Shown here piece after piece: positions 15,436-15,632 of a DNA stretch of 64,000 bases (within the stretch, counting starts at the first letter, position 1; each line of letters opens with the position of its first letter). Source of the DNA: a virus; the IMG/VR virus record IMGVR_UViG_3300045988_163304, positions 1-64,000 of that record. One strand, 5' to 3'. Below the pieces are notes generated by a model. That model ran no database searches. It worked only from the letters and a program-made list of their open reading frames with translations, and had not been told where the DNA came from. A program made the position numbers and the translations under genes.

Positions 15436-15632
15436 ACGGCCGTCGCCAAACAGGTAAGGCACAGGACTTTCGAGAAATCGTTTAAATGGGTTGTATTATG
15501 TGATGGGTTAAGTAGCATAATATAAGTTCTGTTAGTAGGACGCCAACCGGAATGATTGGTAGTATGAGTGCAAGTCTCATTTTCTCGCCCTGACTCCTGC
15601 ATCTGCTGGTTCGAGTCCAGCCGGCCGTGCCA
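15436..15632 (+). tRNA. tRNA (Gln-UUG-like?) interrupted by a ~120-nt structured insertion in the anticodon loop
   Basis: 5' part ACGGCCG-TC-GCC..GGC-A-CAGGA-CTT... (15436-15469); 3' part ...TCCTG-CATCT-GCTGG-TTCGAGT-CCAGC-CGGCCGT-G-CCA (15595-15632). The insert is closed by its own stem CGAGAAA/TTTCTCG. Confidence 0.45.

Follow-up and report, generated by a model that had tools for sequence, protein, structure and literature searches.

An interrupted tRNA-Gln gene in a phage tRNA array

The DNA analyzed here, positions 1 to 64,000 of the IMG/VR virus record IMGVR_UViG_3300045988_163304 (the window), is a phage-like region in which ARAGORN identifies 25 tRNA genes, all on the plus strand, between positions 5453 and 21311. 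Genes for replication, lysis and RNA repair follow the array. The gene of interest, a tRNA-Gln interrupted by an insert and located at 15436-15632, is not reported by ARAGORN under default settings. Its segment 15436-15629 matches the Rfam tRNA model at 43.1 bits (gathering score 29; E 7.8e-6 over the whole window), the alignment skipping about 124 nucleotides (nt) of the anticodon loop. An earlier interpretation made from the letters alone (the sequence-only reading) had described one tRNA gene split in its anticodon loop, with intact acceptor, D-arm, anticodon-stem and T-arm helices. The Rfam match, which spans the insert, agrees with this description, and all of these helices are present (Table 1).

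The insert was assigned to the 121 nt from 15471 to 15591, where it splits a tRNA-Gln(UUG) between U35 and G36, because among several joins giving a 7-nt loop only the U35/G36 join yields Gln in all lineages. Judged from the window sequence alone, an insert at 15470-15590 would give the same spliced product; the junctions were placed between U35 and the following C, and between the last tail nucleotide (N) and G36, because relatives exist in which the tail ends in A. The window sequence without the insert is called tRNA-Gln(ttg) by ARAGORN, with a 7-nt anticodon loop. The predicted junction of the spliced tRNA joins GGCACAGGACTTT to GACTCCTGCATC and restores the loop CUUUGAC. The D arm, UCGCCAAACAGGUAAGGCA, and G73 of the host tRNA are hallmarks of tRNA-Gln. 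In addition, the annotated tRNA-Gln of phage Phass-1 matches the 3′ half of the host tRNA, and intact syntenic homologues of the latter are called tRNA-Gln(ttg). In intron mode, ARAGORN names the gene tRNA-Glu(ttc) because a canonical 37/38 intron is forced; this call was rejected in view of the Gln-like D arm, G73, the Phass-1 match and the fact that a sensible anticodon results in every lineage with the U35/G36 join alone. No second tRNA-Gln was found by ARAGORN in the 64-kb window.

Relatives of the insert

Pattern scans of IMG/VR, a metagenome collection and the GTDB species genomes recovered an element family of 65 members, 50 of them distinct when flanks are considered and representing 33 distinct elements. 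The relatives lie on uncultured contigs of 90-250 kb (designated below by L numbers), many from assemblies of human-gut type. The GTDB species genomes contributed a single member, on a 164-kb contig binned in a 'Mollicutes' metagenome-assembled genome and probably belonging to a phage. Among the annotated phage genomes of INPHARED, none was found to carry such an insert, the sequences of the insert and of two smaller-insert pre-tRNAs matching in exons or nowhere; nor did the 12000-24000 interval of the window have a near DNA match there. The motif AAGTTCTGTTAGTAGG matched unrelated coding sequences as well, and these matches were discarded. The window itself holds a single copy of the element.

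Comparative evidence for a cloverleaf in the insert

The structure of the insert was derived from an alignment of 31 distinct elements, with partners slid by 1-3 columns and 500 shuffles as controls. In the five helices of the insert, 98.1% of the alignment cells are paired, as compared to 36-46% in the slid controls. Double changes affect 23 of the 32 pairs, and the observed scores were reached by none of the 500 shuffles. RNAalifold independently returned the same four-way junction.

The closure of the insert by CGAGAAA/TTTCTCG, already recognized in the sequence-only reading, is real. All seven pairs of this acceptor-like helix, whose first base is the 5′ junction, form in each of the 33 distinct elements through eight different sequences, with compensatory double changes at six positions. 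Its 3′ strand is directly abutted, as in tRNA, by a T-like arm that is likewise fully paired (5/5) in all 33 elements, shows compensation at four of its five pairs and presents an invariant UGCAAGU loop. In the D-like stem, the G10-C and U11-A pairs are replaced by A-U and G-C in relatives. Direct reading of the sequence further places U8, A14, G18, G19, A21, C56 and A58 of the insert at their tRNA positions. The anticodon-like hairpin varies from 3 to 5 base pairs (bp) across elements (88% paired; compensation at 4/5 pairs), and its loop is variable in sequence and in length; with a loop of 6-9 nt that is not conserved, the insert is not a decoding tRNA. The 4-nt tail that closes the element reads UCCA, CCCA or GCCA elsewhere, resembling a discriminator base plus CCA.

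The insert departs from a tRNA by an expansion of the D-like loop. It comprises about 45 invariant positions, mostly unpaired, and an 11-bp hairpin. RNAalifold predicts an alternative pairing between the invariant blocks on either side of this hairpin, on which covariation is silent because the blocks do not vary.

Secondary-structure prediction had been proposed as a check in the sequence-only reading. When the insert was folded as a single sequence, its energy resembled that of shuffled sequences (z = -0.2) and was not informative; the comparative cloverleaf was supported by covariation and by RNAalifold. As the thermodynamic stability is unremarkable, the case for the structure is the comparison with relatives. 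The conserved 121-nt RNA represents a new family of structured RNA.

Relationship of the insert to tRNA

A covariance model made from these inserts alone (R1) matches ordinary tRNAs of 74-77 nt over model positions 1-122 (25-48 bits, lowest E value 7e-9), among them the tRNA-Ile, tRNA-Asn and tRNA-Arg of the window. It fits best to Trp tRNAs with the D arm GUUUAAAGGUAGAAC, which is similar to the GUUUAAAUGG...GUAGGAC of the element. The Rfam tRNA model recognizes several inserts in turn, with scores above its gathering score: one in a tRNA-Gly (L165 6036-6102; 36.4 bits), two in tRNA-Leu (L187 6449-6510 and L141 1732-1793; 38.2 bits) and one in another type II tRNA (L200 8633-8703; 35.2 bits). 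The L179 copy of the 121-nt element itself scores 31.6 bits, the match running exactly from the first base to the discriminator.

Some free phage tRNAs (Trp CCA and Gly; L268, L275 and L267) share with the inserts the D arm UAGUUUAA...AAAAC, without G18 G19, as well as a UGCRA T loop with G at position 55. The T loop of the element is also found in ordinary phage tRNA-Trp genes. This tRNA variant, with its unusual D arm and UGCRA T loop, is the likely source of the inserts. The 121-nt element is tRNA-shaped and probably tRNA-derived.

Selection on the host tRNA and contexts of the element

Covariation of the host stems was evaluated in 15 distinct host sequences, again with slid partners as controls. 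Compensatory double changes occur in five of the seven acceptor pairs and in three of the five anticodon-stem pairs, each of these stems pairing a strand of the 5′ exon with a strand of the 3′ exon. In the bridging stems, 99.7% of cells are paired, versus 24-44% in the controls. Removing the sequence from the start of the acceptor-like helix to the end of the tail gives a tRNA-Gln(ttg) by ARAGORN in all 42 tRNA-Gln contexts, and a tRNA-Lys(ttt) in L179. Since the exons co-vary across the insert, the host tRNA is under selection. The interpretation we favor is that the locus is a functional phage tRNA-Gln(UUG) gene carrying a second, tRNA-derived cloverleaf RNA in its anticodon loop; together with the enzymatic splicing route outlined below, we give it slightly less than an even chance.

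The carriers of the tRNA-Gln type display five different acceptor stems. In L179, the same element sits inside a tRNA-Lys(UUU), between U36 and A37. Free-standing copies occur in tRNA arrays, just upstream of tRNA-Gln in L127, L172 and L206/L132, and upstream of tRNA-Trp in L164. The base preceding the 5′ junction (position -1) is U in 33/33 distinct elements. A different situation was found in L165 (~4373-4620, minus strand), where the host tRNA-Gln has decayed and the element is intact. The changes, mostly C-to-T, lie in the 3′ half and the tail; the element differs at 4 of 117 positions, the tail and the 3′ exon together at 22 of 45 (Fisher p = 4e-11). The host tRNA of L213 is also truncated or decayed. 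The CC of the tail is kept in intronic copies, and is replaced in free-standing copies (AUCA or AUUC) and in the decayed L165 copy (UUUU). Its loss in these copies implies that the tail serves the junction and that the remainder of the element has a separate function. The expansion, invariant and retained where no functional host tRNA is left, probably plays a part of its own.

In L127 (11178-11425), 9 nt separate the free copy from a downstream tRNA-Gln, which is interrupted between U35 and G36 by a tRNA-like insert of 49 nt. The syntenic L172 locus has the free copy and an uninterrupted tRNA-Gln, a contrast that points to a recent gain or loss of the small insert.

A boundary rule shared by smaller inserts

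Phage contigs bearing the element also hold many tRNAs interrupted by inserts of 49-92 nt. These resemble tRNA cloverleaves in which the anticodon arm is missing or reduced. They have a 5-bp stem with a T-like loop (UUCAAAU, UUCGAAU, UGCGAAU or UGCAAGA) abutting the 3′ strand of the helix. In all of this material a simple rule describes the junctions: the 5′ junction is the first base of the 7-bp helix, and the 3′ junction follows a 4-nt tail that is mostly UCCA or ACCA. When genes were spliced in silico by this rule, ARAGORN returned Ile(tat) and Glu(ttc) twice each, Leu(caa), Gly(tcc) twice, Pro(tgg), Lys(ttt) and Gln(ttg). With the canonical junctions that ARAGORN forces, the same genes give contradictory Arg, Phe and selenocysteine calls. 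The spliced products also agree with known identity marks of the respective tRNAs, namely U73 in Gly, C1-G72 together with G37 in Pro, and in Leu a long variable arm. The inserts lie at 32/33, 34/35, 35/36 or 36/37 of the loop, and the exon bases at the junctions vary; therefore, only the distances from the insert's own end are constant.

A test for the helix plus T arm was applied to 111 distinct candidate interrupted tRNAs. Forty-seven of them pass with a 4-nt tail, whereas each other tail length is satisfied by no more than 0-8 of them, and shuffled inserts pass in 1.4% of trials. Further interrupted tRNAs were seen in other contigs (tRNA-Ile, tRNA-Asp(GUC) and tRNA-Lys); the Asp insert fits the rule by eye. 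These regularities indicate that the junctions are defined by the insert's own tRNA-like ends and not by the host tRNA.

A separate type of insert, 223 nt long, was noticed with ARAGORN -i in the anticodon loop of a CUA suppressor tRNA (L147 1516-1828, L161 112-424, L187 9958-10270, and L212). It matches no Rfam intron family at the gathering score and, by eye, does not follow the 7-bp/4-nt rule.

A possible splicing route

The tRNA-like ends of the insert suggest how it could be removed. Bacterial RNase P, which prefers U at position -1, has as its minimal substrate a stack of acceptor stem and T arm that ends in a 3′ NCCA tail. RNase P would cut between 15470 and 15471, as it would at +1 of any acceptor/T-arm minihelix, and an endonuclease would cut directly after the NCC(A/U) tail, at the 3′ junction. 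Held together by the acceptor and anticodon stems, the tRNA halves would be left with a nick in the anticodon loop, the type of lesion that phage RNA-repair enzymes seal. An RNA ligase would then close the nick, plausibly the phage's own ligase together with its end-healing set (35224-39063), and the products would be mature tRNA-Gln and a free 121-nt tRNA-like RNA. The RNase P cut is the best-founded of these steps because the minihelix with NCCA is a minimal substrate, because of the U at -1 and because a precedent exists: the tRNA-like module of Mycobacterium smegmatis YrlA, which has a 7-bp acceptor stem, receives CCA and is an RNase P substrate both in vivo and in vitro (PMC4201824).

The repair genes of the window are listed in Table 1. 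The product of the ligase gene matches the Pfam RNA_ligase family with 25.4 bits (E 1.8e-5), just below the cut-off of 27, matches the DraRnl-type model TIGR02306 weakly and shares 48% identity with RNA ligases from Bacillus phages. These best matches of the ligase, and the endolysin domains, are a hint that the host is a Firmicute. A nucleotidyltransferase is also encoded in the window.

We submit as a tentative proposal, and one more likely to fail than to hold, that the element exemplifies a third mechanistic class: a tRNA nested in a tRNA, removed by RNase P and a cut after CCA, with the exons rejoined by a phage repair ligase and the released 121-nt RNA being functional.

Several considerations weigh against the favored interpretation and its splicing route. 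While the anatomy, the boundary rule, its generality and the selection on the exons are shown by the sequence comparisons, we infer every enzymatic step. The cut after the tail is the weak point of the route: to our knowledge, no bacterial enzyme is established as cutting precisely after an encoded CCA in the likely (possibly Firmicute) host, and CCA is an anti-determinant for Bacillus subtilis RNase Z, although RNase Z-type enzymes of Thermotoga maritima and Escherichia coli do cut there. The tail of the window element is CCCU rather than NCCA, and some small inserts end in ACUA, ACAA or a 3-nt tail. The window insert by itself has no match to the Rfam tRNA model at E ≤ 10, as expected of an element with a degenerate anticodon arm and a 54-nt expansion. 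It is common for tRNA-rich phages, with introns or without, to possess RNA-repair cassettes (PMC7824862), so that the cassette of the window is permissive, and weak, evidence. Finally, the healing enzymes suit 2′,3′-cyclic-phosphate and 5′-OH ends, which neither RNase P nor RNase Z produces; for this reason, cleavage by a dedicated endonuclease or by RNA catalysis has to be weighed as well.

Alternative explanations

A single dedicated, metal-independent endonuclease of phage or host origin could read the inner acceptor end and cut both junctions, leaving 2′,3′-cyclic-phosphate and 5′-OH ends as in fungal and plant tRNA splicing, with heal-and-seal enzymes joining the exons. This possibility, unlikely as we judge it, would account for the complete kit for such ends in the window (cREC protein, two metallophosphoesterases, kinase and ligase), and the fixed distance of both junctions from the same helix end would suit a single recognition event. 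It is opposed by the lack of a candidate among the approximately 60 open reading frames (ORFs) of the window that were scanned. No RNase P protein or RNase Z was found among them, nor any splicing endonuclease (EndA/Sen); the only RNase-like domains were a PIN+PhoH protein (43132-44238) and an RNase H (50018-50473). Besides, the acceptor/T-arm minihelix would be an RNase P substrate in any event.

We consider it improbable that the expansion of the D-like arm is a small new ribozyme that cuts or splices the junctions, its free copies possibly acting in trans on small inserts. The roughly 45 invariant and mostly unpaired nucleotides are suggestive of such an activity, and so are the intact element inside the decayed L165 host, the free-standing copies and the L127 arrangement, in which a tRNA-Gln interrupted by 49 nt at this very site follows a free copy after 9 nt. 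With a length close to that of the 12-bp acceptor/T stack, the 11-bp hairpin might bring its GGG loop to the CC of the tail. Yet inserts of 49-70 nt obey the boundary rule without the expansion domain, and the conserved blocks show no covariation with the tail. The co-occurrence of small inserts with the element is biased, as the loci were chosen for the element, and small inserts were later found in other contigs. At E ≤ 10, no self-cleaving or self-splicing family of Rfam matched, the hammerhead, twister, twister-sister, pistol, hatchet, HDV-like and hairpin models included. Further structural ideas were examined and dropped. A search by eye for hammerhead, twister or internal-guide pairings gave nothing consistent; pairing of the AAGU of two loops with exon ACUU is absent from free-standing copies and small inserts; and mimicry of the anticodon-stem strand by the tail (CCCUG versus UCCUG) is true of only two lineages.

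The occurrence of the element in two different tRNAs and on its own means that it moves or is moved, and could denote a dead tRNA-Gln gene into which a mobile tRNA-like element has inserted, with nothing being spliced. The decayed or truncated hosts of L165 and L213 are in keeping with this scenario, which we nonetheless hold to be very improbable. Both stems that bridge the insert have evolved in a compensatory manner in five host lineages; removal of the insert gives a 7-nt loop and the cognate anticodon in all intronic copies; the CC of the tail is conserved in intact hosts only; the 64-kb window offers no other tRNA-Gln; and the window copy does not look like the true decay of L165. The small mobile element suggested in the sequence-only reading is possible only insofar as the element is present in several tRNAs and free-standing; it has no target-site duplication. 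A miniature inverted-repeat transposable element or an IS200/IS605-type element was discarded on the grounds that the flanks (CTTT and GAC) are not duplicated, that the G-U pairs work on one strand and that the window holds a single copy; pairings that include G-U fit an RNA structure.

Finally, a miniaturized group I intron or an archaeal-type bulge-helix-bulge intron, for which the anticodon-loop position (as in bacterial group I tRNA introns) and the U before the 5′ junction of the 121-nt family might plead, has a negligible chance of being correct. On the group I side, no Rfam intron family, group I model included, matched either 15380-15700 or the insert alone at E ≤ 10, where only the host tRNA and chance matches appeared; the last base of the insert is U, A or C in all copies and never G, and the sole reading that ends in G would combine a Gln body with a Glu anticodon; several small relatives have C at -1, and sizes go down to 49 nt. 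The bulge-helix-bulge motif would require a 4-bp central helix, of which the best candidate forms at most three pairs in each of five cases, and the positions vary instead of being 37/38. The sequence-only reading was therefore correct in denying that this is a canonical group I intron, and with its boundaries redefined the insert has no Rfam intron match at E ≤ 10. Of the options it had left, a miniaturized intron is not supported, given also the variable -1 base and the 49-70-nt relatives, and a different class of tRNA insertion is the one that the evidence favors.

Comparison with known tRNA introns and tRNA-like RNAs

tRNA genes are known to be spliced in two ways: bacteria and organelles have self-splicing introns of group I or, rarely, group II, and in archaea and eukaryotes an endonuclease and a ligase act on bulge-helix-bulge structures. 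Bacterial group I introns (cyanobacterial tRNA-Leu(UAA), Azoarcus tRNA-Ile, and tRNA-Asn/Asp of Patescibacteria; PMC13011429) also interrupt the anticodon loop. With lengths from about 200 nt upward, they contain a P1-P9 core, follow a U-G pair at the 5′ junction, terminate in G and splice themselves with guanosine; as far as its sequence tells, the insert has none of these features. With archaeal and eukaryal introns it would share a probably protein-dependent cleavage followed by ligation, and the kinase, phosphoesterases and ligase are reminiscent of the fungal and plant pathway. Those introns rely on a bulge-helix-bulge and a splicing endonuclease, followed by RtcB or heal-and-seal enzymes, whereas the insert lacks the motif, and no endonuclease homologue was found among the scanned ORFs of the window. 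The junctions of the insert are measured from its own tRNA-like end, not from the host tRNA or from a bulge-helix-bulge.

The closest parallel is found in Lak megaphages. Devoto et al. (2019, PMC6784885) described their tRNA introns as 'enigmatic' and remarked that one of them 'may encode a tRNA'; they offered neither a structure nor a boundary rule nor a mechanism. Like our insert, the Lak introns lie in anticodon loops of phage tRNAs and have no Rfam match. By our own reading of Table S6, those of tRNA-Tyr and tRNA-Phe have at their 3′ end a 7-bp helix and a T arm with the loop TTCGAAT or TTCGATT. Unlike the insert, the Lak introns place an additional hairpin (about 27 nt) on the 5′ side of the tRNA-like module and have only 2 nt following the helix; by eye, their sequences show no likeness to the element. 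Because the layout differs, one rule does not cover every phage tRNA intron, which is a further count against the favored interpretation.

Among free RNAs, YrlA Y RNAs also mimic the acceptor, D and T arms of tRNA; unlike the insert, they have both ends in a Ro-binding stem at the place of the anticodon arm and are not contained in a tRNA (Chen et al. 2014, PMC4201824). No Rfam family, Y RNA or other, matched the insert at E ≤ 10. In phage T4, Pnkp and Rnl1 seal the anticodon-loop nick made by PrrC. This nick is damage inflicted by the host rather than a programmed step, and no T4 tRNA has a tRNA-like insert. The T4 cluster also yields 'species 1 and 2', stable tRNA-like RNAs processed by RNase P, which the free-standing copies of the element resemble. 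Full-text searches of the literature gave no description of tRNA-shaped tRNA introns, of the boundary rule or of the mechanism. The insert, a putative intron, is judged to fall outside the known classes of tRNA intron.

If the proposal is correct, an intron that is shaped like a tRNA and sets both of its junctions would represent a third route of tRNA splicing, assembled from enzymes every bacterium has, and would explain the 'enigmatic' phage introns reported in 2019. Phage RNA ligases and end-healing enzymes would gain a constitutive job besides the repair of host-inflicted damage. The supply of a phage tRNA would depend on a phage enzyme, possibly providing a timing switch in genomes with suppressor tRNAs, and the tRNA-Gln gene would serve as the host gene of a 121-nt non-coding RNA. 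Whatever the mechanism, the annotation of tRNAs in phage arrays is incomplete, as ARAGORN misses such genes by default and gives a wrong anticodon in intron mode.

Table 1. Features of the interrupted tRNA-Gln locus and related genes (window coordinates unless a contig is named)
Feature	Position	Strand	Evidence or remarks
5′ exon, tRNA-Gln(UUG)	15436-15470	+	Rfam tRNA match; checked coordinates; in-silico spliced product
Host acceptor stem	ACGGCCG 15436-15442 / CGGCCGT 15622-15628	+	
Host U8 C9, then D arm	D arm 15445-15460	+	
Host anticodon stem	CAGGA 15462-15466 / TCCTG 15595-15599	+	
Host 5′ loop nucleotides C32 U33 U34 U35	15467-15470	+	
Insert, putative intron, tRNA-shaped cloverleaf	15471-15591	+	130.2 bits to model R1; covariation; RNAalifold
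Acceptor-like helix, 7 bp	CGAGAAA 15471-15477 / TTTCTCG 15581-15587	+	Covariation
U8 C9 of insert	15478-15479	+	
D-like stem, 4 bp	GTTT 15480-15483 / GGAC 15538-15541	+	100% paired in alignment
Conserved D-loop expansion, ~54 nt	15484-15537	+	Invariant columns
Expansion 5′ block AAATGGG	15484-15490	+	
Expansion hairpin, 11 bp	15491-15501 / 15515-15525	+	7/11 pairs compensatory
Invariant hairpin loop GATGGGTTAAGTA	15502-15514	+	
Expansion 3′ block GTTCTGTTAGTA	15526-15537	+	
Anticodon-arm-like hairpin (15543-15559)	CCAA 15543-15546 / TTGG 15556-15559	+	9-nt loop
T-arm-like hairpin, ATGAG/CTCAT	15564-15580	+	7-nt loop TGCAAGT, 15569-15575
4-nt tail CCCT	15588-15591	+	Last base is the 3′ junction; NCCA/NCCU in relatives
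3′ exon: G36 A37 C38, TCCTG strand, variable loop, T arm, acceptor strand	15592-15632	+	
Host T arm	15605-15621	+	
Host G73, then CCA	15629-15632	+	
Ro60/TROVE-like RNA-binding protein with vWA domain	23455-24984	+	phrog_850 'RNA-binding protein' E 2e-135
cREC_REC domain protein, predicted cyclic-phosphate RNA-end processing	27986-28297	+	PF20274 E 5e-17
Second metallophosphoesterase (Metallophos)	29121-29906		
ATP-dependent RNA ligase, candidate sealing enzyme (putative link to insert)	35224-36594	+	phrog_968 E 1e-62
Polynucleotide-kinase-like P-loop kinase	37805-38308	+	AAA_33 E 2.4e-22; bacterial Pnkp kinase domain E 3e-15
Metallophosphoesterase	38308-39063	+	Metallophos_2 E 3e-10; end-healing pair with kinase
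ROOL/RAGATH-33/RAGATH-18 loci	L127 11801-12394; L164 9491-10085, 12022-12133; L187 3954-4066		
ROOL/RAGATH-33/RAGATH-18 loci	L212 6531-6643, 12637-12709; L200 6956-7068		

A Ro60-like gene and other neighbors of the tRNA array

Just beyond the array, 8 kb downstream of the insert, the window encodes the Ro60-like protein, and in L165 a gene of this type starts about 0.7 kb downstream of the element; in the other lineages, whose loci are short, none was found within 9-11 kb of the element. Searches of the PDB by sequence or profile gave no match for its product, and a fold search alone succeeded. The structural model, of moderate confidence (mean predicted local distance difference test score, pLDDT, 66.8), matched a TROVE domain (9kop, E 1.5e-6), the Ro60 of Thermus phage phiLo (9l5y, E 1.6e-4) and human Ro60 (E 0.016), and the MIDAS motif of the protein is invariant. 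No credible Rfam match was found next to the gene. The gene is followed by one for a major-vault-protein-like protein (25155-27650; MVP shoulder and Vault_3 domains), and a Band-7/flotillin protein is encoded at 39139-40527. The Ro60-like, vault-like and Band-7 proteins may form a vault- or Ro-like ribonucleoprotein set beside the RNA-repair genes. As Ro60 proteins bind tRNA-like Y RNAs (PMC4201824; PMC12135203), the released 121-nt RNA might, by analogy, be a Y-RNA-like partner of the Ro60-like and vault-like proteins.

One kb downstream of the interrupted tRNA-Gln, at 16549-16620, lies a CUA tRNA of the amber-suppressor type (ARAGORN 'Pyl'). As the long ORFs of the window are open under the standard code, any recoding would concern other parts of the genome. 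Two further tRNAs of the array may be degenerate or atypical: one at 8049-8118, which has 35.8 bits with Rfam and is unlisted by ARAGORN, and a tRNA-Glu(CUC) at 7184-7261, which at 29.4 bits is barely at the Rfam gathering score. A sodium:dicarboxylate symporter gene (Pfam SDF, E 3e-82), an unusual auxiliary gene for a phage, is found in the middle of the array (11111-12160). The array is flanked by genes for a PD-(D/E)XK protein (4107-4739; PHROG match annotated as HNH endonuclease), an IceA-like endonuclease (22025-22624) and a DNA-methylase fragment (22960-23337), which may be homing or restriction modules able to move array segments. Large or orphan structured RNAs (ROOL RNA, RAGATH-33 and RAGATH-18) gave no match in the window at the Rfam gathering score; they are present inside the tRNA arrays of related phages, at the positions given in Table 1.

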